Positions 3,652 through 17,067 of a stretch of DNA of 24,000 bases are shown in pieces; position 1 is the first letter of the stretch, and each line of letters begins with the position of its first letter. The position numbers and the translations under genes are program-made. Origin of the DNA: an uncultured Actinomycetota bacterium (lineage in GTDB: Bacteria; Actinomycetota; Actinomycetes; Propionibacteriales; Nocardioidaceae). The DNA lies in NCBI GenBank assembly GCA_963765905.1, contig CAVXXY010000006.1:699630-723629 (forward strand). Direction: 5' to 3'. The notes under the pieces were generated by a model, which did not search any database, was not told where the DNA came from, and was given only the letters and a program-made list of their open reading frames with translations.

Positions 3652-4110
3652 ATGAACAAGACCTATCGCATCCTCGCCAACACCATCGTCATCCTGGTCG
3701 TGGTCCAGGCCATGATGATCGTGTTCGCCGTTGCGGGGCTGTTCCACTGGATCGACGAGGGAGCGACCCTCGACAAGGCCGTGATCGAGGGCTGGGAGGA
3801 CGAGCCGCCCACCTGGCAGGGCGCCATCGGTCACTTCGTCCACGTGATGGCTGGCACGTACCTGATCCCGCTGCTGGGCATCATCCTGCTGGTCGTCGCG
3901 TTCTTCGCGACGGTCCCCGGCGGGGTGAAGTACGCAGCCATCGTCGCGGCCTCCATCGCGGTGCAGGTCACCGTCGGCATCATGGCCGACTCGGCGCCGT
4001 GGCTGGGCCTCGTGCACGGGCTGAACGCCTTCATCCTCTTCATGTCGGCGATCATGGCGGCGCGCGCGGCCAGACCGGCTGACGTGCGGCAGCCTGCGAT
4101 GGCCGGGTGA
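3652..4110 (+). CDS. small integral membrane protein (4 predicted TM helices), unknown function
   Basis: 152-aa ORF with an ATG start preceded by AAGGGGG. It has four hydrophobic stretches and several His residues near the helix ends (FHW, GHFVHVM, LVHGLN). Its stop overlaps the next gene's start as GTGA at 4107-4110. Confidence 0.7.
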   Translation: MNKTYRILANTIVILVVVQAMMIVFAVAGLFHWIDEGATLDKAVIEGWEDEPPTWQGAIGHFVHVMAGTYLIPLLGIILLVVAFFATVPGGVKYAAIVAASIAVQVTVGIMADSAPWLGLVHGLNAFILFMSAIMAARAARPADVRQPAMAG

Positions 4111-5546
4111 CCAAAGCACGACTCCGGCTGCTGCTGGCAGTCGTAGCAACGCTGGCCGTCGTCGCACCACTCGGGTACTTCTGGCAGCAGAGCCGGATGC
4201 CCGGCAGCTACAACGTCATGGAGATGGGCTACGTCGACAACGGCGGCGGCAGTGCGGTCAGCCATGCCCACCATGGCTCGGGCGGCACGAGCGTTGCGGA
4301 CCTCCGGTCCCCCACCGACCGTGCGCCAGACGTGCGGTTCGAGCTGGTCGCGCGCAAGGAGCGCTTCGAGCTCGCCTCGGGACGCGCGTTCGACGGCTAC
4401 ACGCTCAACGGCCAGTCGCCAGGACCGCAGCTGACCGTGCGCCAGGGCCAGCTCGTCGAGGTGGTCCTGCGCAACGAGTCGGTGCCCGACGGGGTGAGCG
4501 CGCACTGGCACGGCGTCGACGTCCCGAACGCCGAGGACGGCGTCGCGGGTGTCACCCAGGCAGCCGTGCGCCGCGGCCAGGAGCACACCTACCGCTTCGT
4601 TGCCGAGCAGGTCGGCACCTACTGGTACCACTCGCACCAGGTCTCGCACACCCAGGTCGTGCGCGGCCTGTTCGGCTCGATCGTCGTGCTGCCGGCCAAG
4701 TCGGACGGGCGCCTGGACATCACCGCCGTCACCCACACGTACGCCGCCGTGCGCACGGTCAACGGCGAGGAGGGCACCACGGTCGTGGCAGCCGACCCCG
4801 GCCAGGTCGCCCGGGTCCGCGTGGTCAACACCGACAACGGCCTGGTGCAGGTGTGGACCGCGTCGCCGTACCGGGTCCTGGCCGTCGACGGCTACGACGT
4901 CAACCAGCCCACGCCCGTCGAGGGGCGGTCGGTGCAGGTCGCGGCCGGCGGGCGGGTCGACCTGGAGGTGACCGCCCCCGCCCGGGTGCAGGTCGGTGGC
5001 GCGACCGCCGTCGTGGTCGGCACCGACAGCGACAAGCCCGAGCAGCCCGACAAGGAGCTCGACCTGCTGTCCTACGGCTCTCCGGCCGACCTTCCGTTCG
5101 ACGCCGAGCAGGCCGACCGGCACTTCGACTACCGGATCGGACGCAAGCCAGGCTTCGTCGACGGCAAGCCCGGGATCTGGTGGTCCATCAACGGGCACCT
5201 CTGGCCGGACGTCCCGATGTTCGCCGTCGAGGAGGGCGACGTCGTCGTCTTCCGCATCAAGAACAGCAGTGGCGAGGTGCACCCGATGCACCTGCACGGC
5301 CACCACGCCGTCGTACTGTCGCGCGACGGGAAGCCCGCTACAGGCAGCCCCTGGTGGGTCGACTCGCTCGACGTCGAGAACGGCGAGGAGTTCGAGATCG
5401 CCTTCCTCGCCGACAACCCCGGGATCTGGATGGACCACTGCCACAACCTCACCCACGCTGCCGAGGGACTCGTGGCACACCTGATGTACGCCGGGGTGAC
5501 CACACCGTTCATGCTTGGCGACGACTCGGGCAACGAGCCGGAGTAG
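4107..5546 (+). CDS. multicopper oxidase (laccase-like), N-terminal signal/anchor
   Basis: All four copper motifs are present: HWHG, YWYHSH, HPMHLHGH and HCHNLTHAAEGL. The N-terminus MTKARLRLLLAVVATLAVVAPLG is hydrophobic. Confidence 0.9.
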   Translation: MTKARLRLLLAVVATLAVVAPLGYFWQQSRMPGSYNVMEMGYVDNGGGSAVSHAHHGSGGTSVADLRSPTDRAPDVRFELVARKERFELASGRAFDGYTLNGQSPGPQLTVRQGQLVEVVLRNESVPDGVSAHWHGVDVPNAEDGVAGVTQAAVRRGQEHTYRFVAEQVGTYWYHSHQVSHTQVVRGLFGSIVVLPAKSDGRLDITAVTHTYAAVRTVNGEEGTTVVAADPGQVARVRVVNTDNGLVQVWTASPYRVLAVDGYDVNQPTPVEGRSVQVAAGGRVDLEVTAPARVQVGGATAVVVGTDSDKPEQPDKELDLLSYGSPADLPFDAEQADRHFDYRIGRKPGFVDGKPGIWWSINGHLWPDVPMFAVEEGDVVVFRIKNSSGEVHPMHLHGHHAVVLSRDGKPATGSPWWVDSLDVENGEEFEIAFLADNPGIWMDHCHNLTHAAEGLVAHLMYAGVTTPFMLGDDSGNEPE

Positions 5547-5547
5547 C

Positions 5548-6279
5548 TCAGCCCGACGACTTGGCGTCGATCGCGCCGGCGACCTGGTTGGCGAGAAGAA
5601 CCGCGACTCGTCGCTGCTCGCGCGTGGGATAGGAGATCCGGGACGCCGAGGTGATCACGAAGTGACCCAGCGTGGTCGGACCACGCTGCACCACCAGCGC
5701 TACCTGCTCGTCGAACGGCAGCCCGTGACGGCCGACGTCGACCGACCGCCCTGCCCGCGTCACGTCACCCTCGTGGTCCATGATCGCCAGCCGGCTGTCG
5801 TGCACCGGCCCGGGCACGTAGTCGCATCGGGGGACGTCCAGCACCGCCTGGATCTGGCGGCGCGCCATCTCGATGCCCTCACGGACGTCGGCGGACGCGA
5901 CCAGCTCCGCCGTAGCGAGCACGCCCTCGAGGTAGCCGGATCGCCGAGCGGCGCGCGCCTGATGTCGATGCCCCCACGTCGCCACCTCGGTGACGGCCAG
6001 GCCGACCACCAGCAGCAGCACGACGACCTCGACGTCGTCGGGGTCGTCGATGGTGAGCCGGTGGTAGGGCTCGGTGAGGAAGAAGTTGAACCAGAGGCCG
6101 GCGCTTAGGGCCGTCAGCAGCCCGGCGAGCCGGTCACCGGTCGCCGCCGCCGCGACTACCCACAGCACCAGCACCAGCGCGGCGGTGGCCGTGGTGACCT
6201 CCGAGCGGAAGGCCGCGAGGACAGCGGAGGTGGTCAGGGTCGCAACAACGCCACCGAACACGTTCCAAGGTCTGTACAC
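5548..6279 (-). CDS. DUF4118 (KdpD-type transmembrane domain) protein with an uncharacterised C-terminal domain and no kinase domain
   Basis: 243 aa. It has three TM helices followed by FFLTEPYHRLTIDDPDDV, the hallmark of the DUF4118/KdpD membrane domain. About 120 further residues follow, without HisKA/HATPase motifs. Confidence 0.65.
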   Translation of the reverse strand: MYRPWNVFGGVVATLTTSAVLAAFRSEVTTATAALVLVLWVVAAAATGDRLAGLLTALSAGLWFNFFLTEPYHRLTIDDPDDVEVVVLLLVVGLAVTEVATWGHRHQARAARRSGYLEGVLATAELVASADVREGIEMARRQIQAVLDVPRCDYVPGPVHDSRLAIMDHEGDVTRAGRSVDVGRHGLPFDEQVALVVQRGPTTLGHFVITSASRISYPTREQRRVAVLLANQVAGAIDAKSSG

Positions 6280-6336: not shown

Positions 6337-7797
6337 TTAGGACTTCGCGGCTGCGTCGCGCCCGGCCCGGCGCCCGAAGAAGGACGCCTCTCCGAGCTGC
6401 GTGCCGGACGAGTACCCCTTGCCGTCGACGGCGATGTTGGACGCGCACGCCCCGGCCGCGTAGAGCCCAGGGACGACGCTGCCGTCGTCTCGGAGCAGTG
6501 CGCCGTCCACGGTCACGCGCAGGCCCCCGCACGAGAAGCCGGCGTAGAAGCACTTGCCCGGAGTGAGGTCGTAGGCGCCCCACGGCCCTTGGTCCAGCGG
6601 TACGACGTACTCCGGCGCCTTGCTGAAGGCGGGGTCCTCCCCCTCGGCGGCAGCCTTGTTGTAGTCGGTCATCGTCGCCACCAGCGCGCCCTCGGGCATG
6701 CCCAGACCGGCCTCCATCTCCTCGATGGTCTCCCAGCCGTCGACGAGCGGCTGGAAGCCGTAGGCCGGACGGTCCATCGTGGCCGAGTCGAGGATGAGGT
6801 AGGCGACCCGGTCGGGCTGGTCGAACACGAAGGCCGACGTGCGCGAGTGGTAGGAGTCCTCGTTGACGAACCGCTGCCCGTGCTTGTTGACCGCGATGCC
6901 CCGCAGCAGCCCCTCGGGCGGGTAGAAGGGGGCGGTGAAGAACGCGCCGTCCAGGTGGTCGGCCACTCCCCCGACCGACTCGCCGAGCCGGATGCCGAGG
7001 CCGTCGTCGTAGGTGTTGCCCAGCGCCATCCCGTTGTCGTCGAGTGCGAGCAGCGACGGCGCGTGCTGCTCGACCATGTCGTGGTTGAGGACGAAGCCGC
7101 CGGCCGCCAGGACGACCGAGCCGGCACGGATGAAGCCGGTCTCGTCGAAGCGGCGCCACGCGACGCCCGCCACGACGTCGCCGGAGATGACCAGAGCGGT
7201 GGCCCCGGTCTCGAAACGCACCTCGACGCCCAGCTCGGCCAGCTTGTCCAGGGCGAGACCCACGACCATCCCGGCGCCACCGGCATCGCCGGTCACGGGC
7301 ACCTTGTGCCCGCGCGGCGCCGGCTTGGCCAGCTCCCTCACCGGGAGGCACTTCTCGTTGCCGGTGAACATCAGGCCCTGCGTCTCGGGCTGGATCACGG
7401 CCTTGTGCGGGTAGAACGAACGCTCGAACTCGAAGCCCAGAGACTCCAGCCACCCGAAGTGCTCCACGCTGCCCTCGGCGTAGAGGCGGATCTTCTCCGG
7501 GTCGCACTCGGGCGACATCGCGCGCAGGTACGCCGCCATCTCCTCGGGGCTGTCGTCCCAGCCGGTCGCCTCCTGCACCGGGGTTCCGCCGCCGAGGTAG
7601 AAGTGACCGCCGGCCATGGCGCTCGTGCAGGTCAGCCGCCCGCCGCGGTCGATCACCAGCACCCGCGCGCCCGCCTCGACGGCCGCCAGCGCGGCAGTGA
7701 CCCCGGCCATGCCCGCGCCGACGACGAGCACGTCCACCTCGTCGGACCAGGCAGGGACGTCCGCAGCCGGGATAGGGGCAGGGGGAGCTGTCGTCAT
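6337..7797 (-). CDS. FAD-binding dehydrogenase (FAD_binding_2 family; 3-ketosteroid dehydrogenase / fumarate reductase flavoprotein-like)
   Basis: 486 aa. The N-terminus carries the dinucleotide fold DVLVVGAGMAGVTAALAA..GARVLVIDR. The C-terminus has PGLYAAGACA, typical of this family. Confidence 0.85.
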   Translation of the reverse strand: MTTAPPAPIPAADVPAWSDEVDVLVVGAGMAGVTAALAAVEAGARVLVIDRGGRLTCTSAMAGGHFYLGGGTPVQEATGWDDSPEEMAAYLRAMSPECDPEKIRLYAEGSVEHFGWLESLGFEFERSFYPHKAVIQPETQGLMFTGNEKCLPVRELAKPAPRGHKVPVTGDAGGAGMVVGLALDKLAELGVEVRFETGATALVISGDVVAGVAWRRFDETGFIRAGSVVLAAGGFVLNHDMVEQHAPSLLALDDNGMALGNTYDDGLGIRLGESVGGVADHLDGAFFTAPFYPPEGLLRGIAVNKHGQRFVNEDSYHSRTSAFVFDQPDRVAYLILDSATMDRPAYGFQPLVDGWETIEEMEAGLGMPEGALVATMTDYNKAAAEGEDPAFSKAPEYVVPLDQGPWGAYDLTPGKCFYAGFSCGGLRVTVDGALLRDDGSVVPGLYAAGACASNIAVDGKGYSSGTQLGEASFFGRRAGRDAAAKS

Positions 7798-7807
7798 GGC
7801 CTCATCT

Positions 7808-7821
7808 TAGAACAGGTTCTA
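7808..7821. promoter_or_regulatory. inverted repeat TAGAAC-AG-GTTCTA, candidate operator next to the FAD dehydrogenase start
   Basis: Perfect 6-bp arms with a 2-bp spacer, 11 nt upstream of the minus-strand ATG at 7797. It lies in the only AT-richer stretch of the intergenic region. Confidence 0.25.
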
Positions 7822-7876
7822 GTTTTGTTGTGGTGTTGGTCGCGTTGCGGGGGCCGGGCCACTCCGCTAGCGTAGT

Positions 7877-7895
7877 TTAGGTAAGGCTTACCTAA
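7877..7895. promoter_or_regulatory. IdeR/DtxR/DmdR-type iron box
   Basis: TTAGGTAAGGCTTACCTAA is a perfect 19-bp palindrome. It matches the consensus TTAGGTTAGGCTAACCTAA at 17 of 19 positions, and the two mismatches are symmetric. It lies 14 nt upstream of the GTG at 7910 and just upstream of the GGAGG RBS at 7901-7905. Confidence 0.8.
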
Positions 7896-7909
7896 CTTCC
7901 GGAGGCGCA

Positions 7910-9436
7910 GTGCTGTTCAACGCGGACAACGTGGACGAGTACGTCGCCACGCTCAACCGGGGCGTCGAGCATCTCGCGGGGCAGCTGCGCCGGCTCCAGG
8001 GACCGGTCACCGGCGTCACGCCCGAGCAGGCCGAGAAGCTCGTGTACGACGTGGACCTCGACCGCCCGCTCCGTGACACCGACGCGGCGCTCGAGGAGCT
8101 CAGCCGGCTCTACCTGGACGACGCGGCCTGGTTCCACGAGCCGACGTACGCCGCGCACCTGAACTGCCCGGTGGTGATCCCCGCTCTGCTCGGCGAGCTG
8201 TTCGTCTCCTCGGTGAACTCGTCGCTGGACACCTTCGACCAGAGCGTCGGTGGCACCTTCATCGAGCGCAAGCTCGTCGACTGGACCGCGGAGCGCATCG
8301 GCTTCGCCCCCGACACCGCCGACGGCGTCTTCACCAGCGGAGGCTCGCAGTCCAACCTGCAGGCGCTGCTGCTCGCACGCGGGCAGACCGACGCTGCGCT
8401 CGGCAGGGTTCGCATCTTCGCCTCGAGCGACAGCCACTTCAGCGTGGTGAAGTCGGCCACGCTGCTCGGCCTGGACGCCGACGCTGTCGTCAAGGTGCCC
8501 ACGGATGCACGGAGGCGGATGGACGTCGGCGAGCTGGACCGGCTGCTGACCCAGAGCCTCGCACTGGGCCTGACCCCCATGGCGGTCGTCGCGACTGCGG
8601 GCACCACCGACTTCGGCGCGATCGACCCGATGGACCGGATCGCCACCGTCACCGAGAAGCACGGCGTCTGGCTGCACGTCGACGCGGCGTACGGTGGCGG
8701 GCTGCTGGTCTCGAAGCGTCGCCGGCACCTGCTGGCCGGCATCGAGCGCGCGGACTCGGTCACGGTGGACTACCACAAGACCTACTTCCAGCCCGTGTCG
8801 TCGAGCGCGCTCGTGGTGTGCGACGCGGGCACTCTCCGGCACGCGACCTACCACGCCGACTACCTCAACCCGGAGTCAGCCGAGCATCCCAACCAGGTCG
8901 ACAAGAGCCTCCAGACGACAAGGCGGTTCGACGCCCTGAAGCTCTGGATGACGCTGCGGATCATGGGGGGCGGCCAGGTCGGTGACTACTTCGACGCGGC
9001 GATCGACCTCGCCCACGAGGTGTACGACGTGCTCCTGACCGACCCCGACTTCGAGGTCGCGGCCCCGCCGACGCTGTCGACGCTGGTCTTCCGGTACCGC
9101 CCGCCGCGGGTGTCGGAGGACTGGGCCGACGAGCTCAACCCGAGACTGCGCTCGGCCCTCTTCGCCGGAGGCTCCGCGGTGGTGGCCGGCACGACGTTCG
9201 AGGGCCGGTCCTGGCTGAAGTTCACCCTGCTCAACCCCGAGGCGAAGCTCGCCGACCTCCTCGGCGTCGTCGACACCCTGCGTGGGATCGGCCATGAGCT
9301 CTCGACCGCTGGTCGAGCAGGTGGCGAGCCGCTGGGCGAGCCACCGTCCGTCGAGACCAACCAAGGCGACGTGCGGTCATTGGTCTCGACGGACGTTCGC
9401 TCCGCTCACTGCTCGACCAGCGTCGGGCGTTCCTGA
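7910..9436 (+). CDS. PLP-dependent group II decarboxylase (DesA/DfoJ-like lysine, ornithine or 2,4-diaminobutyrate decarboxylase for siderophore diamine supply)
   Basis: 508 aa. Motifs are [23 protein letters not shown] and DYHKTYFQP (PLP lysine). About 45 C-terminal residues look like a non-conserved tail. Confidence 0.9.
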
Positions 9437-10740
9437 TGCACACCCAGGACTTCATCGGCATCGGCCTGGGACCGTTCAACCTGGGGCTCGCCTGCCTGAC
9501 CGATCCGATCGACGAGCTCGACGGCGTCTTCCTCGAGGCGCAGCCGCAGTTCGACTGGCACCCAGGGATGATGCTGCCCGAGGCAACCTTGCAGGTGCCG
9601 TTCCTGGCCGACCTGGTGACGATGGCGGACCCGACCTCGCCGTACTCCTTCCTCAGCTACCTCAAGGAGTCGGGGCGGCTCTACTCGTTCTACATCCGCG
9701 AGTCGTTCTACCCGCTTCGTGCCGAGTACAACCGGTACTGCCAGTGGGCTGCCGCCAAGCTCGACAACGTCCGGTTCGGCACTCGCGTGACCAGGGTCGA
9801 GCACGAAGGCGAGGCCTACGTCGTGCACGCGGTCGACGACCGCACGGGCCGCACCGAGTGCTTCAGAGGTCGCAAGCTCGTGCTGGGCGTCGGCACGAAG
9901 CCGGTCGTGCCCAACGCCCTAAGGAACGCCGGCGGGCCGTGGGTGCACTCGGCCCGCTACCTGGAGCACAAGGAGTCGCTGCAGCGGAAGCAGTCGATCA
10001 CGATCGTCGGAAGCGGACAGTCGGCGGCGGAGATCTACCTCGACCTGCTCGGCGACATCGAGTCGTTCGGCTACTCGCTCAACTGGGTCACCCGGTCGCC
10101 GCGCTTCTTCCCCATGGAGTACACCAAGCTCACCCTCGAGATGACCTCGCCGGAGTACACCGCTTACTTCCAGTCGCTCGACCGGGAGACCCGTGCCCGG
10201 CTGGTCAACGAGCAGAAGGGCCTCTACAAGGGGATCAGCGGCGACCTGATCGACACCATCTTCGACACGCTCTACCAGAAGCAGGTGTACGGCGAGGTCC
10301 CGACGCTGCTGCTCACCAACACTGCCCTGGTCACCGCCGAGTGGGACGGCACGTCGTACCGCCTCGGACTGGTGCACGAGGAGCAGAAGCAGCCGATGGA
10401 GCTCGAGACCGACGGCCTCGTGCTGGCCACCGGCTATGCCGCACGCACCCCCTCGTTCGTCGACCCGATCCGCGACCGGATCCGGTGGGACGAGCGCGGT
10501 CGCTTCGCGGCCGGGCCGACGTACGCCGTCGACGGTCCGCCCGAGAGCTCAACCCCGACGATCTTCGTGCAGAACGCCGAGGAGCACACCCACGGGTTCG
10601 TCGCCCCCGACCTGGGCATGGGCGCCTACCGCAACTCGGTGATCATCGCCTCGCTGCTGGGCCGCGAGGTCTACCCGGTCGAGAAGCGGGTCGCCTTCCA
10701 GCACTTCGGGGTGCCCGACTCGCTGCGGGTGGGCCCGTGA
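9436..10740 (+). CDS. lysine N6-hydroxylase / L-ornithine N5-oxygenase family flavin monooxygenase (DesB/DfoA/IucD/AlcA-like)
   Basis: 434 aa. Motifs are [14 protein letters not shown] (FAD), [12 protein letters not shown] (NADPH) and LATGY. Its start overlaps the upstream stop as TGATG. Confidence 0.9.
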
Positions 10741-12869
10741 CGGCCTCGACCGGCGCGACCATCGAGCTGCTGGCGCTCGACCTCGAGCGCCACCTGCCGC
10801 TCCTCCACGCCTGGGTCACCCACCCGCGGGCGGTCTACTGGGGGATGCAGGGTGCGTCGATCGGCGACGTGCGGGAGGAGTACGCCCGCATCGACGCCGA
10901 CCCGCACCACGACGCGTTCCTCGGATACGTCGGCGGCGAGCCCGCGGTCCTCGCCGAGGTCTACGACCCCGCGCACAGCGAGCTCGCCGACCACGTCCGG
11001 CCCGGCGACGTCGGGATGCACGTGCTGGTCGCCCCGCCCGAGGGTGAGCCCCGGCACGGCTTCACCCTCGCGATCCTGCAGGCGGTGATGTGGCACTGCT
11101 TCGCCCCGGCCGAAGTCCGCCGCGTCGTGGTCGAGCCCGACGTACGCAATGACAAGATCGCCCGGCTCAACGCCGCTGTCGGCTTCCGGGTCGCTCGAGA
11201 GATCCCGCTGAAGGGCAAGACCGCCGCTCTCTCGTTCGCCACGCGTGAGGCCTTCCTGCTGACCCTCGCCCAGCGCAACCTGGTCGCCAAGGCGATCGCC
11301 GAGTTCGCCCACGAGCGCATCGTCACGCCCCAGCCGCACGGCGACGGCTGGTTCGGTCTGGGCGACTACCGGTTCCGGGCTCGGGTGCACCCGCTGGAGC
11401 ACTGGGTGGTCGACCCGCTGTCGCTGCCGGAGGGGGTCGACGCGCAGCGGTTCGTCCTCGAGCACGGCCCGGTGCCGGACGCGCTCATGCCGACGTACCT
11501 GGAGGAGATCGCGAGCACTCTCGCCGCGTCGATGTGGAAGCTGGAGCACTCCACTCAGACCGCCGACGAGCTGGTGCACGCGGACTTCCAGACCATCGAG
11601 TCCGCGATGACCGAGGGCCACCCGGCCTTCGTCGCCAACAACGGCCGGATCGGGTTCGGCACCGACGACTACACGTCGTACGCCCCCGAGTGCGGCCAGG
11701 ACCTCGAGCTGGTCTGGGTCGCGTGCCGCCGCGACAAGACGGTCTTCTCCCTCGGCAGGGACGTCGACCCGAAGAGCCTGTACGACGAGGGCGAGGTCGA
11801 CCCGGACTTCGTGGTGCTGCCCGTGCACCCCTGGCAGTGGAAGAACAAGGTCTCGGTCACGTTCGCGCCCGACGTCGCCCGCGGCGATCTCGTCCATCTC
11901 GGCACCAGCCGCGACCGGTTCCGTGCCCAGCAGTCGATCCGCACCTTCTTCAACGTGAGCAGGCCGGAGCGGCACTACGTCAAGACGGCCCTGTCGATCC
12001 AGAACATGGGCTTCATGCGTGGCCTCTCGCCGCGCTACATGGAGGCGACGCCGGCTATCAACGACTGGGTCGCCGACGTCGTCGAGCAGGACCCGGTCCT
12101 GCGCGACCTGGGTTTCGGCGTGCTCCGCGAGCTCGCGGCGGGCGGCTACCGTGGCGACGCCTACCACCTCGTCGAGCGGCCGAACGCACACCAGAAGATG
12201 ATCTCCGCCCTGTGGCGGGAGAGCCCCCTCCCCCGGCTCGCGCCCGGAGAGCGGGTCGCCACCATGGCCTCGCTGCTGCACCGCGACCGCTCCGGCAAGG
12301 CGCTGGTGACCGCCCTGATCCGCGAGTCGGGACGTGCGCCCGCCGTGTGGCTGCGGTCGTACCTCCGGGCCTACGTCACGCCGATCGTGCACTGCCTCTA
12401 CCGCTACGACCTCGCGTTCATGCCGCACGGCGAGAACCTGATCCTGGTGCTGGAGGACCACGTCCCGACCCGGGTGTTCATGAAGGACATCGGCGAGGAG
12501 ATCGCGGTGATGGGCGACCTGCCGCTGCCTGCGGCGGTGGAGCGGGTCCGGGGCTCGTTCCCCGACGACGTGAAGGCGCTCGCTCTGCACACCGACGTCC
12601 TCGACGGCTTCCTGCGCTACCTCGGGGCGATCCTTGCCGACGACGGGGTGATCGGCTCGGACGCGTTCTGGACGCTGGTCCGCGAGGCCGTGCTCGACCA
12701 GGACCCGGAGCTGAAGGAGTCCGCCGAGCGCTACGACCTGCTGCGCCGGGAGTTCCGGCACTCCTGCCTGAACCGCCTCCAGCTGCGCAACACGCTGAGC
12801 ATGGTGGACCTCTCCGACCAGGCCGAGTCACTCATCTTCGCCGGAAGCCTGGTAAACCCGATCGCATGA
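10737..12869 (+). CDS. fused N-hydroxydiamine acyltransferase (IucB/DesC-type GNAT) :: IucA/IucC-family NIS siderophore synthetase (DfoC/BibC-like)
   Basis: GTG at 10737 overlaps the upstream TGA as GTGA. The N-terminal ~175 aa carry [15 protein letters not shown] and VVVEPDVRN (acyltransferase). From about nt 11262 the sequence is IucA/IucC-like, with [19 protein letters not shown] and [11 protein letters not shown]. The upstream part of the 1195-aa track ORF is rejected. Confidence 0.85.
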
Positions 12870-14752
12870 CCTCCTACGAGATCTTCCGCGACGCCTACGG
12901 CATCCCGCACGTCCGAGCCGGCTCGGTGCCGGACCTCGCCCACGGGCAGGGCGTGGCGACGGCCCGGGACCGCGCCTGGCAGCTCGACCTCGAGCGGCTG
13001 CGCGGCGAGGGCCGCGTCGCCTCGCTCCTGGGCGAGCCCGGCGTCGAGTGGGACGTCTTCGCACGACGGGCCCGGATCGCGGAGACGGCCCAGCGGTCGT
13101 TCGCGCTGCTCGACGCCGAGACCCAGGAGTTCGTCTCGGCGTACGTCGACGGGGTGAACGCCGGCCTGGGCTCGAGCAACGCGTCGGTGGAGCATGCCGC
13201 ACTCGACGCCACGCCCGGCCGCTGGGAGCCGTGGGCACCGCTGTCGGTCTTCCTCGTGCAGCAGATCCTCTTCGCGACCTACCCCTCCAAGCTGTGGCGC
13301 CAGCACCTCGTGGACACCATCGGCCCGGAGGCGCTGGGGTGGTTCCGGCAAGAGGGCATGCCCCTCTCCGGTAGCAACGCGTTCGCGGTCGCGGGTGGCC
13401 GGACGCGCTCGGGGAAGCCGCTGGTCGCCGGTGACCCGCACCGGCTCTTCGAGGCGCCGAACGTCTATGCGCAGGTGCGGCTGGCCTGCCCCGAGTTCGA
13501 CGTGGTCGGCTTCACCTTCCCCGGCGTCCCTGGCGTGCAGCACTTCGGACACACCGGCAGCGTGGCCTGGGCCATCACCAACGCGATGGCCGACTACCAG
13601 GACCTCTTCGTCGAGGAGGACCTGACCCACGCCGAGACGCACCTCGAGGAGATCGAGGTCCGCGACGGCGACCCCGTGGAGGTCGACGTCACGATCACCC
13701 CGCGCGGCCCGATCGTGGTCGACCACTTCAGCCTGCGCACCGCGTCGTACGTCTGCGAGGACCTCGGCTTCGGGGCGATCCTGCCGCTGCTGCGCGCCCG
13801 CACGACCGCCGACGTCGACGCCGCGATGGCGCACTGGGTCGAGCCGGTCAACAACGTCGTGATCGCCGACGACCAGGGCACCGTGCTGCACCGGGTCGCC
13901 GGCAAGGTCCCGGTGCGGCCTCTGGAGAACCGCACCCTCCCCGCGCCGGTCGGGAACGAGTGGACCGGCTGGGTCACCGACCTCCCGCGCACGACCGTGG
14001 CGGACGACGGGTTCGTCGTCACCGCCAACCAGAGGCTGTCCCCCGACTACGTCCGGATCGGCGACGACTTCGCGCGGACGGACCGCGCCGACCGGATCAC
14101 CGAGCTGCTCGGCGAGCGCACCGACCTCGCTGTCGACGACCTCGCGGGGATCCTCACCGACACCTGGAGCCGCAAGGCCGGAGGACGCATGGAGGACGTG
14201 GGCGAGGAGTACGTCGCGCACCGGGACGCCCTCGTCGCGGAGGTCGCTGCTCGACCCGAGATCGCCCGGCTGGACGGCGCCGCGCCGTACGGCGAGCTCT
14301 ACGATCCCTGGTTCTTCCTGCCGCTGCGCATCGCCAAGGCGCTGCCCACCGCATCAGTGGTCTCGACGGACGGCTCGCAAGCTCGCCTGCTCGACCAGCG
14401 TGGGGCAGTCTCCTGGCCGAAGCTGTTCCACCCCCTCCACGGGCTCGAGCAGCTCGGCGTCGAGCACCCTCTCGTCGATGCCCTGCACAAGAGCACGGCG
14501 GTCCCGGTCTACGGCGACAACGACTGCGTGCAGGCGATGCACTCGATCCCCGGCTCGCCGGTGTGCAGCCGCGGTCCGGTCGCACGCTACGTGTGGGACC
14601 TGGCCGACCGCTCCAACAGCCACTGGGTGGTGCCGCTCGGCGCGTCCGGCGTACCGGGGCCGCATCACCACGACCAGCTGGACCTCTGGGCGAACGGCCG
14701 GCTCGCGCCGGTGGTCACCGACTGGGACCGACTCGAGAAGGAAGAACCATGA
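12866..14752 (+). CDS. penicillin acylase family (S45, Ntn hydrolase) protein with no signal peptide
   Basis: ATG at 12866 overlaps the upstream stop as ATGA. The N-terminus is [20 protein letters not shown]...GQGVATARDRAWQLD. The predicted autoprocessing site and nucleophile is G-S(170)NAFAV...GKPLVAGDPH. No hydrophobic leader is present. Confidence 0.85.
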   Translation: MTSYEIFRDAYGIPHVRAGSVPDLAHGQGVATARDRAWQLDLERLRGEGRVASLLGEPGVEWDVFARRARIAETAQRSFALLDAETQEFVSAYVDGVNAGLGSSNASVEHAALDATPGRWEPWAPLSVFLVQQILFATYPSKLWRQHLVDTIGPEALGWFRQEGMPLSGSNAFAVAGGRTRSGKPLVAGDPHRLFEAPNVYAQVRLACPEFDVVGFTFPGVPGVQHFGHTGSVAWAITNAMADYQDLFVEEDLTHAETHLEEIEVRDGDPVEVDVTITPRGPIVVDHFSLRTASYVCEDLGFGAILPLLRARTTADVDAAMAHWVEPVNNVVIADDQGTVLHRVAGKVPVRPLENRTLPAPVGNEWTGWVTDLPRTTVADDGFVVTANQRLSPDYVRIGDDFARTDRADRITELLGERTDLAVDDLAGILTDTWSRKAGGRMEDVGEEYVAHRDALVAEVAARPEIARLDGAAPYGELYDPWFFLPLRIAKALPTASVVSTDGSQARLLDQRGAVSWPKLFHPLHGLEQLGVEHPLVDALHKSTAVPVYGDNDCVQAMHSIPGSPVCSRGPVARYVWDLADRSNSHWVVPLGASGVPGPHHHDQLDLWANGRLAPVVTDWDRLEKEEP

Positions 14753-15267
14753 GCGTCAGCCACCGACCCGTCGAGCCTCGCCGCGACTCCGACCTGCTGC
14801 ACGGTTGGGTCACGCAGGACCGTGCGACGTTCTGGGGCATGACCGAGACCACCCGCGACGAGGTCGAGGAGATCTATACCTACATCCAGTCGCAGGAGCA
14901 CCTCGCCGCCTACCTGGTGCACTGGGACGACCAGCCCGTTGCGCTCTACCAGACCTACGACCCGGCCGTCGACGAGATCGGTGAGCACTACGACCGAGAG
15001 CCCGGTGACCTCGGCGCGCACTTCTTCATGGCGCCGGACAAGAGGCCGTGGACGGGCTCGGTGATCCGCTACATCCTCGAGCAGCTGTTCGCGCCGTCCG
15101 CGACGTCGCGCGTCGTCGTGGAGCCGGACGCGCGCAACGCGCGGGCGGTCGGGCTGATGCGCAGGATCGGCTTCGAGCTCGGCCCGCGGGTGGAGCTGCC
15201 GCACAAGCCGGCGCAGTTCGCCTTCTTGACCAGGGCGGCGTACGACGGACTGACGCTGAGCGTCTAA
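14749..15267 (+). CDS. stand-alone IucB/DesC-type siderophore acyltransferase (GNAT, Acetyltransf_8-like)
   Basis: ATG at 14749 overlaps the upstream stop as ATGA. The 172-aa protein has LHGWVTQDRATFWGM and VVVEPDARN. It is a paralogue of the N-terminal domain of the 10737-12869 product. Confidence 0.85.
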   Translation: MSVSHRPVEPRRDSDLLHGWVTQDRATFWGMTETTRDEVEEIYTYIQSQEHLAAYLVHWDDQPVALYQTYDPAVDEIGEHYDREPGDLGAHFFMAPDKRPWTGSVIRYILEQLFAPSATSRVVVEPDARNARAVGLMRRIGFELGPRVELPHKPAQFAFLTRAAYDGLTLSV

Positions 15268-15341
15268 TGCCTGACACTGTCCAGACGCCAGCCGAGTGCG
15301 TTTGGTTCGTCGGAATAGACAGGAGGCGCCAACGGTTCGTA

Positions 15342-15359
15342 TAGTTGAAACGTCAACTA
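15342..15359. promoter_or_regulatory. inverted repeat TAGTTGA-AACG-TCAACTA abutting the RBS of the LLM monooxygenase gene
   Basis: Perfect 7-bp arms with a 4-nt spacer. It ends at the AAGGAG RBS (15359-15364), 15 nt before the ATG at 15374. A GGTTCGT direct repeat lies at 15304-15310 and 15334-15340. Confidence 0.3.
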
Positions 15360-15373
15360 AGGAGTGAGCGGCA

Positions 15374-16459
15374 ATGCAGTTCGGCATCTTCACCGTCGGC
15401 GATGTGACCCCCGACCCCACCACCGGGCGTACGCCGACCGAGCACGAGCGCATCAAGGCGACCATCGAGATCGCCAAGAAGGCCGAGGAGGTCGGGCTCG
15501 ACGTCTTCGCCACGGGCGAGCACCACAACCCGCCGTTCGCCGCCCCCGCCAACCCGCCGGTGCTGCTGGGCAACATCGCGGCGCAGACCTCGAGGCTCAT
15601 CCTCTCGACGAGCACGACGCTGATCACCACGAACGACCCGGTCCGCATCGCGCAGGACTACGCCTACCTTCAGCACCTCTCCGATGGCCGGATGGACCTG
15701 ATGATGGGCCGTGGCAACACCGGCCCGGTCTACCCATGGTTCGGCAAGGACATCCGCGAGGGCATCGCGCTGGCGATCGAGAACTACCACCTGCTGCACC
15801 GGCTCTGGCGCGAGGACGTCGTCGACTGGGAGGGCAAGTTCCGTACGCCGCTGCAGGGGTTCACCTCGACGCCGCGACCGCTGGACGGCGTACCCCCGTT
15901 CATCTGGCACGGCTCGATCCGCTCCCCCGAGATCGCCGAGCAGGCGGCGTACTACGGCGACGGGTTCTTCGCCAACCACATCTTCTGGCCGGCGTCGCAC
16001 ACCCAGCAGATGGTCGGGCTCTACCGTGAGCGCTACGAGCACTACGGCCACGGCTCCGCCGACCAGGCGATCGTCGGGCTCGGCGGCCAGATCTTCATGC
16101 GCCAGAACAGCCAGGACGCGGTCAACGAGTTCCGGCCGTACTTCGACAACGCCCCGGTCTACGGCAACGGTCCCTCGCTGGAGGACTTCATGGCCCAGAC
16201 GCCGCTGACCGTCGGGTCGCCGCAGCAGGTGGTCGAGCGGACGCTCTCCTTCCGGGAGTACGTCGGCGACTACCAGCGCCAGCTGTTCCTCCTCGACCAC
16301 GCCGGGCTCCCGCTGAAGACCGTGCTCGAGCAGCTCGACCTGCTCGGCGAGATCCTCCCCGCCCTGCGGGCCGGGTTCGCCGAGGGCCGGCCGGCGCACG
16401 TGCCCGACGCCCCCACCCACCAGTCGCTGCTCGCCACCGCGCAGGAGGTCACCGCATGA
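15374..16459 (+). CDS. LLM-class (luciferase-like) FMN-dependent oxidoreductase, probably the CE1758-type family
   Basis: 361 aa. The N-terminus MQFGIFTVGDVTPDPTTGRTPTEHERI...GLDVFATGEHHNPPF and the later LMMGRGN motif are typical of luciferase-like monooxygenases. The gene is coupled to an FMN reductase gene. Confidence 0.85.
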   Translation: MQFGIFTVGDVTPDPTTGRTPTEHERIKATIEIAKKAEEVGLDVFATGEHHNPPFAAPANPPVLLGNIAAQTSRLILSTSTTLITTNDPVRIAQDYAYLQHLSDGRMDLMMGRGNTGPVYPWFGKDIREGIALAIENYHLLHRLWREDVVDWEGKFRTPLQGFTSTPRPLDGVPPFIWHGSIRSPEIAEQAAYYGDGFFANHIFWPASHTQQMVGLYRERYEHYGHGSADQAIVGLGGQIFMRQNSQDAVNEFRPYFDNAPVYGNGPSLEDFMAQTPLTVGSPQQVVERTLSFREYVGDYQRQLFLLDHAGLPLKTVLEQLDLLGEILPALRAGFAEGRPAHVPDAPTHQSLLATAQEVTA

Positions 16460-17067
16460 CCAGGATCGTCGTCGTCAGCGCCGGGCTCTCGCAGCCGTCG
16501 TCGACGCGCCTGCTCGCCGACCGGCTCACCGCCGCGGCCGTCGCTCGCATCGAGTCCGCGGGCCGCCCGGTGGGGGTGGAGGTGGTCGAGCTGCGCACGC
16601 TCGCCCACGGTCTGGCCGACAACCTGCTGACCGGCTTCGCCACCGGTGACCTCGCCGCGGCCGTCGAGTCGGTCGAGGCAGCCGACGCGCTGATCGTCGT
16701 GACGCCGATCTTCTCCGCGTCGTACAGCGGTCTGTTCAAGACGTTCTTCGACGTGCTGCCGGACGACGCCCTGCAGGGGAAGCCCGTGCTCATCGCGGCC
16801 ACCGCCGGCACGGCGCGGCACAGCCTCGCGCTCGAGCACGCCCTGCGCCCGCTCTTCGCGCACCTGCACGCCGTGGTCGTTCCCACCGCGGTTTTCGCGG
16901 CGACCGAGGACTTCGGGCACGCCGGGCTCCAGGAACGCGTCGAGCGCGCGGCCAAGGAGCTCGCCGAGCTGGTGGTCGGCCGGGTCGCGGCGACTCCCGC
17001 AGCCTCGCCCCGCGCCGCCAACGGCGTCGAGTTCACCCCGTTCGACCAGCTCCTCCACGCGCGCTGA
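16456..17067 (+). CDS. NADPH-dependent FMN reductase (LLM-partnered, CE1759-type)
   Basis: ATGA overlap with the LLM gene. The N-terminus is the flavodoxin-like MTRIVVVSAGLSQPSSTRLL, followed by ADALIVVTPIFSASYSGLFKTFFD. Confidence 0.8.
   Translation: MTRIVVVSAGLSQPSSTRLLADRLTAAAVARIESAGRPVGVEVVELRTLAHGLADNLLTGFATGDLAAAVESVEAADALIVVTPIFSASYSGLFKTFFDVLPDDALQGKPVLIAATAGTARHSLALEHALRPLFAHLHAVVVPTAVFAATEDFGHAGLQERVERAAKELAELVVGRVAATPAASPRAANGVEFTPFDQLLHAR

Follow-up and report, generated by a model that had tools for sequence, protein, structure and literature searches.

A DesG/DesH-type acylase and acyltransferase pair within a compact siderophore operon of an uncultured Nocardioidaceae bacterium

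Desferrioxamine (DFO) B is used in the clinic to chelate iron; whether a producer makes a linear, capped product of this type or succinyl-only macrocycles is decided by the enzyme pair DesG/DesH. The first gene of the pair was recognized by Cruz-Morales et al. in 2017, who saw that the Micrococcus des cluster includes a conserved "penicillin amidase" and named it desG; Streptomyces and Arthrobacter were found to have it elsewhere, beside an iron box, and its first proposed role was the addition of phenylacetyl caps (PMC5812494). The operon desJGH (SCO4048-4050) of Streptomyces coelicolor, which is controlled by DmdR1, was described in PLoS Biology in 2025: deletion of desG lowered desferrioxamine B ~1000-fold and deletion of desH lowered it 16-fold, desferrioxamine E went up, and both deletions were complemented (PMC12161575). 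In the same study, all nine of the 46 sequenced DFO producers that are without desGH yielded only uncapped DFOs, and gene fusions of desG with desH were found to exist (PMC12161575). According to the model published with these results, DesG de-succinylates N-hydroxy-N-succinylcadaverine (HSC), with DesH acetylating the freed N-hydroxycadaverine, which yields the capping unit (PMC12161575); a paper of July 2026 still terms the two proteins a putative hydrolase/acyltransferase pair (PMC13495013). The current report concerns an acylase gene and the acyltransferase gene that follows it in a 24,000-nucleotide stretch of DNA, hereafter the window, from an uncultured Actinomycetota bacterium assigned to the Nocardioidaceae (assembly GCA_963765905.1, contig CAVXXY010000006.1, positions 699,630 to 723,629 of the forward strand).

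The open reading frame (ORF) at 12866-14752 of the window is very probably an orthologue of DesG that works with DesH in a siderophore pathway of the type that is independent of nonribosomal peptide synthetases (NRPS-independent siderophore, NIS). The acylase and its neighbour are the already described DesG/DesH accessory pair and not a new kind of system. The original prediction, made from the letters of the window, had taken the acylase as a sign of an undescribed biosynthetic step; that part of it did not hold, as desG was named in 2017 (PMC5812494) and both genes were found in 2025 to be genetically needed for DFO B (PMC12161575). What the window adds is a compact, fully co-translated desA-desB-desC::desD-desG-desH operon from a Nocardioidaceae-like genome, a lineage that neither the 2017 paper, in its main text, nor the 2025 paper, in the supplement text searched, names as a host (PMC5812494, PMC12161575). 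The minimal, 628-amino-acid DesG that it encodes could also be a convenient enzyme for the biochemistry that is missing for this pair.

Identity of the acylase and its partner

The acylase gene (desG, 12866-14752, +) specifies a leaderless, short-form member of the S45 penicillin-acylase family of N-terminal nucleophile (Ntn) amidohydrolases, with a match to PF01804 (Penicil_amidase) of E=7e-135 and 452 bits, where the cut-off is 21.3. The gene downstream of it (desH, 14749-15267, +) specifies a GNAT acyltransferase of 172 amino acids, the second PF13523 protein of the locus (E=7e-42). Searches against these families, and against PF04183, confirmed that a 628-amino-acid acylase stands between an acyltransferase::IucA/IucC fusion and a second acyltransferase, as had been predicted. 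The ATGA overlaps that were said to join it to both neighbours are also there: at 12866-12869 the desC::desD stop is combined with the acylase start, and at 14749-14752 the acylase stop is combined with the GNAT start. Detection of desGH in other genomes has been based on the occurrence of a PF01804 gene and a PF13523 gene within 1 kb of each other (PMC12161575), and in the window the two genes overlap by 4 nt.

A direct comparison with Streptomyces points to the same identity for both proteins. In S. flavusporus (L030), desG has an iron box 20 nt ahead of it and a stop that is overlapped by desH; the window acylase is 46% identical to this iron-box-linked DesG over its full length (698 columns, E=2e-170), and the window GNAT is 42% identical to the corresponding DesH, versus 36% to the DesC domain of its own operon. 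A weak check was also available by way of Streptomyces homologues from the positions that were edited in S. coelicolor, namely W61 of SCO4049 and W43 and Q91 of SCO4050 (PMC12161575). These homologues carry Trp at DesG position 61, and Trp39 and Gln87 of DesH match W43 and Q91 with an N-terminal offset of four residues.

The acylase had been described as lacking a leader, and this turned out to be true of the clade as well as of the window protein. In 59 of the 62 homologues that were aligned, no more than nine residues stand ahead of a conserved R-D-x-[WYH]-G-I-P-H core (14, 17 and 25 residues in the other three), and in none of the 62 is there a twin-arginine motif within the first 35 residues. 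The core begins at residue 8 of the window acylase. Since the homologues start so near to the core and are without a twin-arginine motif, the missing leader is a trait of the whole clade and not an artefact of the choice of start codon. The reading frame of the acylase is open in the 5' direction as far as 11534, within the synthetase gene; a farther-upstream start that would include a signal peptide was considered and rejected, because this stretch overlaps the synthetase gene and because of where the 59 homologues begin. The acylase is cytoplasmic and is functionally tied to the NIS pathway.

The predicted autoprocessing site and the N-terminal Ser nucleophile of the β subunit, identified by alignment, are encoded at 13370-13378 (+) as G169-S170-N171. 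The residues proposed at this site in the original prediction are intact, and all three are invariant in the 62 homologues, as are H192-R193 (β23-β24), Y201 (β32), H226-F227 (β57-β58), N388, R407 and R410. S170 aligns with residue 1 of the β chains of two Protein Data Bank (PDB) entries, 35sz (where the β chain opens with SNAWGVAG) and 4hsr, and N388 and R410 align with the ANNR...RAERI motifs of 4hsr in the sequence comparison. N388 and R410 are candidate equivalents of the oxyanion-hole Asn and its supporting Arg in penicillin G acylase (PGA; βAsn241 and βArg263), whose spacing is likewise 22 residues. An AlphaFold2 model of the acylase has a predicted local distance difference test score (pLDDT) of 93.1 and a predicted template modelling score of 0.94, and its only soft spots are linker residues 161-170 (mean pLDDT 60) and residues ~491-510. 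We infer self-cleavage between G169 and S170, for which the deposition of 35sz as separate α and β chains and the low pLDDT of the linker provide indirect support.

The operon and its distribution among close relatives

The desG and desH genes are the fourth and fifth members of an operon of five overlapping genes at 7910-15267 (+), desA, desB, desC::desD, desG and desH, which, judging from its junctions, is one translationally coupled unit. In addition to the two ATGA overlaps that involve the acylase, desA and desB are joined by TGATG at 9434-9438, and desB and desC::desD by GTGA at 10737-10740. The first gene (7910-9436, +, GTG start) encodes a DesA-like decarboxylase of 508 amino acids that is dependent on pyridoxal phosphate (PF00282, E=2.8e-58). 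The second, which starts within the stop of desA, encodes a DesB-like amine N-hydroxylase of 434 amino acids (9436-10740, +; PF13434, Lys_Orn_oxgnase, E=8e-124). The third (10737-12869, +), with a GTG start in the GTGA overlap, encodes a DesC::DesD fusion of 710 amino acids composed of a GNAT domain (PF13523, E=1e-44), an IucA/IucC NIS synthetase domain (PF04183, E=2.8e-72) and a FhuF-like C-terminal domain (PF06276, E=1.5e-30); DesC-DesD fusions have been recorded before in Actinobacteria (PMC5812494). An iron box, i.e., an operator of the IdeR/DmdR1 type, lies at 7877-7895 (neither strand assigned), 15 nt 5' of the start codon of desA; its sequence, TTAGGTAAGGCTTACCTAA, has two mismatches to TTAGGTTAGGCTAACCTAA, and no match was obtained in 100 shuffles (none expected by chance). 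A promoter-like site, TAGACA-18-TATAGT (15316-15345, +; 10 of 12 positions matched), likely marks the 3' boundary of the operon.

The distribution of this arrangement was surveyed in one genome per species. At least 596 relatives of the acylase were confirmed, of which the best 80 loci were analysed, so that the proportions given here describe close relatives only. The association of the acylase with NIS genes, a conservation that the original prediction had left to a neighbourhood check, is not confined to the window genome. The colinear order desA-desB-desC::desD-desG-desH recurs at 14 of the 80 loci, in Nocardioides, Aeromicrobium and metagenome-assembled genomes (MAGs), and Nocardioides panacisoli (CP080409.1) has the five genes in an identical operon, each junction being a 4-nt overlap. 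At five further loci the des core lies next to desGH on the other strand, and at 50 loci, mostly from Streptomyces, desG-desH has no des core within the flank. Thus, a DesH-type GNAT gene lies directly 3' of the acylase gene at 69 of the 80 loci, and all 69 of these GNATs score higher with a DesH query than with a DesC query. Three database proteins (P0034, P0058 and P0105) are natural DesG::DesH fusions of acylase and GNAT. An iron box was detected no more than 400 bp 5' of desG for 49 of the 55 non-colinear desGH pairs and 5' of desA in 10 of the 14 colinear operons.

The remaining 11 loci (L007, L014, L016, L029, L032, L045, L058, L065, L068, L073 and L075) have an acylase gene without a downstream GNAT gene, and only one of them has an iron box, a feature that divides these groups of loci cleanly. 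Their acylases are 44-48% identical to the window DesG; the sequence of L058 stops 9 bp past the acylase gene, which puts the downstream gene out of view. These GNAT-less and mostly box-less acylases look like paralogues whose function does not concern iron. We also observed that the acylase gene of N. psychrotolerans (P0115, 658 amino acids; metagenome contig, locus L084, 6001-7977) comes directly after genes for two PAS-HisKA sensor kinases.

The window DesG belongs to a subclade of short-form proteins (P0002-P0007, 608-635 amino acids, 64-72% identical to the window protein) which, the window protein included, are missing three insertions that are present in the majority of homologues (~650-730 amino acids). 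Its two closest relatives, both from Nocardioidaceae and 70% identical to it, are encoded at chromosomal sites equivalent to that of the window, with genes for thioesterase, pterin-binding, multicopper-oxidase, FAD-binding, luciferase-like monooxygenase (LLM) and FMN-reductase proteins as common flanks; in each case the site lies between the FAD-binding gene and the LLM/FMN-reductase pair. The first, from a MAG (L081, 8001-10384), has desG-desH only, with no desA, desB or desC::desD and no iron box. The second (L083, 8001-9845) has desG only, beside a split FAD-binding gene, and has lost the iron box. Comparison of these two sites with the window (6337-16459) suggests a stepwise loss of the des operon around an intact desG.

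The acyl pocket and the substrate of DesG

The relatives of known structure give some indication of the acyl group that might be handled by DesG. In sequence comparisons with the PDB, 35sz is by far the closest entry (β chain, E=3.9e-79; α chain, E=2e-39), and its chains A and C align with acylase residues 4-170 and 170-624. A Foldseek search with the acylase model, in a library that ends in April 2026 and does not include 35sz, listed 50 matches, all of which are S45 acylases, with E-values down to 5e-37. The top fold match is D-succinylase (7ea4/7eby; Foldseek E=5e-37, TM 0.78; sequence match, E=1.2e-35) and the second-best is 4hsr, a class III acylase active on glutaryl-7-aminocephalosporanic acid (7-ACA) (Foldseek E=4e-32; sequence match, E=3.7e-55). 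PGA and PvdQ are far weaker matches than these two by both sequence and fold: the PGA chains give sequence E-values of ~1e-14 (α) and between 6e-8, at best, and 5e-4 (β), and PvdQ stands at about the 46th place in the Foldseek listing. The closeness of the acylase to the enzymes that act on dicarboxylyl amides would best be read as resemblance and not as membership.

Residues β1-β82 of the acylase align without gaps to 4hsr, with His23, Arg24, Tyr32, His57 and Phe58 in common, and D-succinylase also has His-Arg at β23-β24 in an alignment of its NDPHR motif. The corresponding residues in PDB sequences are Gln-Phe in PGA and His-Phe in PvdQ, versus His-Arg (H192-R193) in 62 of 62 members of the DesG clade; a PvdQ double-mutant structure whose PDB title reports an altered property (4bth) has Phe24 as one of its two exchanged positions. 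Because β24 is an invariant Arg in DesG, as it is in the succinyl and glutaryl amidases, the pocket appears to favour an anionic acyl group such as succinyl and to disfavour phenylacetyl or fatty acyl groups, with Arg24 presumably acting as the carboxylate-binding residue, as we take it to do in class III acylases. This comparison, although it is an argument from sequence, is independent of the genetics and speaks for de-succinylation over aryl capping. It also disfavours a proposal in the original prediction by which the acylase would remove a fatty-acyl or aryl cap from a precursor, given the Phe that occupies β24 in PGA and PvdQ.

For the actual substrate of DesG and the siderophore of this organism we infer the following scheme, in which the substrate would be a monomeric N-succinyl unit and the pair would de-succinylate and re-acylate it; we give this reading a probability of about 0.6. 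Under iron limitation, de-repression at the iron box would allow desA-desB-desC::desD-desG-desH to be transcribed and to be co-translated as a single unit. DesA and DesB would produce an N-hydroxy-diamine, which the DesC domain would succinylate to a chain-extending unit (HSC in the cadaverine series). Once DesG had cleaved itself at the predicted site, its Ser170 would serve to hydrolyse this N-succinyl hydroxamate amide in a part of the pool and release the free N-hydroxy-diamine, which DesH would re-acylate with acetyl-CoA, or possibly another acyl-CoA, to a chain-terminating cap unit. The DesD domain could then assemble linear, capped (desferrioxamine-B-like) products besides succinyl-only macrocycles. 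A change in siderophores upon deletion of the gene, as the original prediction had anticipated, agrees with the strong phenotype of the S. coelicolor desG knock-out (PMC12161575). Its suggestion that the acylase proofreads mis-acylated N-hydroxydiamine units came close in so far as the removal of acyl groups from such units is what the published model proposes, but that model frames the process as the balancing of a pool and not as proofreading (PMC12161575).

Several points weigh against this scheme. The knock-out data would fit equally well a DesG that acts on dimers or trimers, and the searchable literature yielded no enzyme assay of either protein, while a search that paired Ntn hydrolases with desferrioxamine led only to papers on pyoverdine. 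The desG-carrying isolates of the 2017 study (Micrococcus and two Streptomyces) made aryl-desferrioxamines, and the sole producer without desG did not (PMC5812494). The substrate range of a short-form DesG may differ from that of its longer relatives. As for the diamine, the top NCBIfam model for the DesA-like protein is the L-2,4-diaminobutyrate (DABA) decarboxylase of the RhbB type, with 396 bits against a cut-off of 900; this score would leave the product (cadaverine, putrescine or 1,3-diaminopropane) unassigned, so that a lysine decarboxylase is not assignable here. Finally, the carboxylate-binding role of Arg24 is a presumption carried over from class III acylases; a literature search aimed at this residue found no paper, and a review of the S45 family (PMC11241749) offered no data at the level of residues.

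DesG might instead edit its products at a late stage, by stripping a linear oligomer that is already assembled (such as desferrioxamine G or an HSC-HSC dimer) of its terminal N-succinyl group, after which DesH would acetylate the exposed hydroxylamine and so create a B-type product. We hold this to be improbable, though not strongly so. The loss of DFO-B and the gain of DFO-E in the ΔdesG strain would be explained (PMC12161575), and a pocket with an Arg would suit a succinyl group equally well at the end of an oligomer. S45 acylases typically accept large leaving groups, such as 7-ACA and the pyoverdine precursor, and the fusion of DesC with DesD in the window could pass monomers straight on to the synthetase, so that little HSC would be free. 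The published model nevertheless prefers the monomer (PMC12161575), and the acylase::GNAT fusions are explained equally well by a monomeric substrate. A related possibility is raised by the Nocardioidaceae relatives described above: since desG, with or without desH, persists there without the des core, and in a short form, there is room for a second function that is independent of the synthetase, such as the re-capping or dismantling of imported desferrioxamines. That DesG is altogether a tailoring or salvage hydrolase of assembled hydroxamate oligomers, its own or foreign, and not a balancer of the monomer pool, seems to us somewhat less probable again than late-stage editing.

A purely catabolic role, in which DesG would hydrolyse the hydroxamate amides of siderophores, ferric or apo, after their import and so release or recycle iron, was among the suggestions of the original prediction; it accounts neither for the obligatory pairing or fusion with an acyltransferase nor for the biosynthetic phenotype of the knock-out. 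The cytoplasmic location and the iron regulation of the acylase would agree with such a role, as would the position of S. coelicolor desG after desJ, whose paralogue desF is the gene for ferrioxamine reductase (PMC12161575), and the retention of desG(H) after loss of the des core in the closest relatives hints at a function apart from the synthetase. The S. coelicolor knock-out, however, alters which products are made and not their use (PMC12161575), a partner acyltransferase would be pointless in a purely catabolic scheme, and the orphan copies in L081 and L083 are without an iron box. We therefore attach little probability to it.

Slightly less probable still is the capping of siderophores by reverse, i.e., synthetic, acylase activity, by which DesG would move phenylacetyl or another acyl group onto the N-hydroxy-diamine. 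Penicillin acylases can perform kinetically controlled acyl transfer, and the aryl-desferrioxamines of the desG-carrying isolates from 2017 would find an explanation. On the other hand, S. coelicolor depends on desG to produce acetyl-capped DFO-B and is not a producer of aryl DFOs (PMC12161575), Arg occupies β24 in place of the Phe lining, in PGA and PvdQ, the pocket for phenyl or fatty acyl groups, the nearest relatives of the acylase hydrolyse succinyl and glutaryl amides, and an obligatory CoA-dependent GNAT partner already supplies the acyl transfer.

It is very unlikely that a PvdQ-like or quorum-quenching acylase, active in fatty-acyl removal or in the degradation of N-acylhomoserine lactones (AHLs), merely adjoins the siderophore genes, for although the S45 superfamily is common to both and the NCBIfam PvdQ model gives a weak local match, this match reaches 33.8 bits where the cut-off is 950, the acylase has no signal peptide, β24 is Arg and not Phe, PvdQ is so distant in the fold search, and the synteny with DesH is conserved, as is the iron box. 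An identification of the acylase as PvdQ, an AHL acylase or PGA was rejected on score, leader and the residue at β24.

Flanking genes and comparison with described systems

Downstream of the operon, window 15374-17067 encodes a luciferase-like monooxygenase of the CE1758 family (700.9 bits) and an FMN reductase of the CE1759 family, joined by ATGA-type coupling at 16456-16459. These are followed by genes for a DinB protein resembling mycothiol S-transferase, an ArsO-like flavin monooxygenase that scores below its cut-off, an aldehyde dehydrogenase and an acyl-CoA dehydrogenase. This block, which relatives also have beside desG, probably has nothing to do with the siderophore. All six of these downstream genes were considered as tailoring enzymes of the cluster and rejected, because a promoter-like site follows desH, because CE1758 and CE1759 form a duo of their own, and because the genes adjoin desG in relatives that have no des core.

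On the upstream side, a divergent gene (6337-7797, -) encodes an FAD-binding protein (NF005508, "FAD-binding protein") with weaker similarity to 3-ketosteroid dehydrogenases. Between this gene and the des operon there is a palindrome with perfect arms, TAGAACAGGTTCTA (7808-7821), and L081 has TAGAACGCGTTCTA at the equivalent place (~7962-7975). The palindrome fits what we take to be the pattern of KstR-type operators, TnnAACnnGTTnnA. Farther upstream lie a gene for a multicopper oxidase and an ORF with a DUF4118 membrane domain (4107-5546 and 5548-6279, -); the multicopper oxidase gene is syntenic in L081 and L083.

Among the described systems with which the window acylase might be compared, PvdQ of Pseudomonas aeruginosa, which serves in pyoverdine maturation and as an AHL acylase, shares with DesG an S45 Ntn hydrolase fold family, deacylation in a siderophore pathway, the Ser1 nucleophile and His23. 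It differs in being a periplasmic enzyme with a signal peptide whose substrate is an NRPS product with a fatty-acyl cap, whereas DesG is leaderless, and its hydrophobic pocket has Phe24 where DesG has Arg193. The "Penicillin acylase family protein" of PDB entry 35sz (α chain of 195 and β chain of 576 amino acids) has the clade motifs GDPHR, HFAHAGxVAW and ADYQDLY and consists of separate α and β chains, the latter beginning at the aligned Ser; it is, however, longer than the window acylase.

The D-succinylase of Cupriavidus sp. P4-10-C (7EBY/7EA4) and the class III acylase 4HSR share the Ser1 nucleophile and His23-Arg24 with DesG, and 4HSR also has Tyr32, His57 and Phe58 of the β subunit in common with it. 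Both are hydrolases of amides that contain a short dicarboxylic acid, and the chemistry proposed here for DesG is of this kind. Their identity to DesG is only 22-30%, their leaving groups are D-amino acids and 7-ACA, and both are larger than the window acylase (824 amino acids for D-succinylase, α 229 plus β 543 amino acids for the class III acylase). In 4HSR, β70 is His, in contrast to Asn in DesG, and neither enzyme has the linkage to siderophore genes that characterizes DesG.

The closest counterparts are found among the des loci themselves. [quoted passage not shown] The location of desG together with desABCD is a feature that the window shares with Micrococcus (PMC5812494), and desG-desH pairs that are in-cluster or fused occur also in Salinispora and others. 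The window departs from S. coelicolor in having no desJ-like gene and in the size of its DesG, which at 628 amino acids, versus ~690 in Streptomyces, is missing three insertions. It departs from it also in the placement of the pair, as desG and desH form genes 4 and 5 of a fully overlapping operon in which DesC and DesD are fused.

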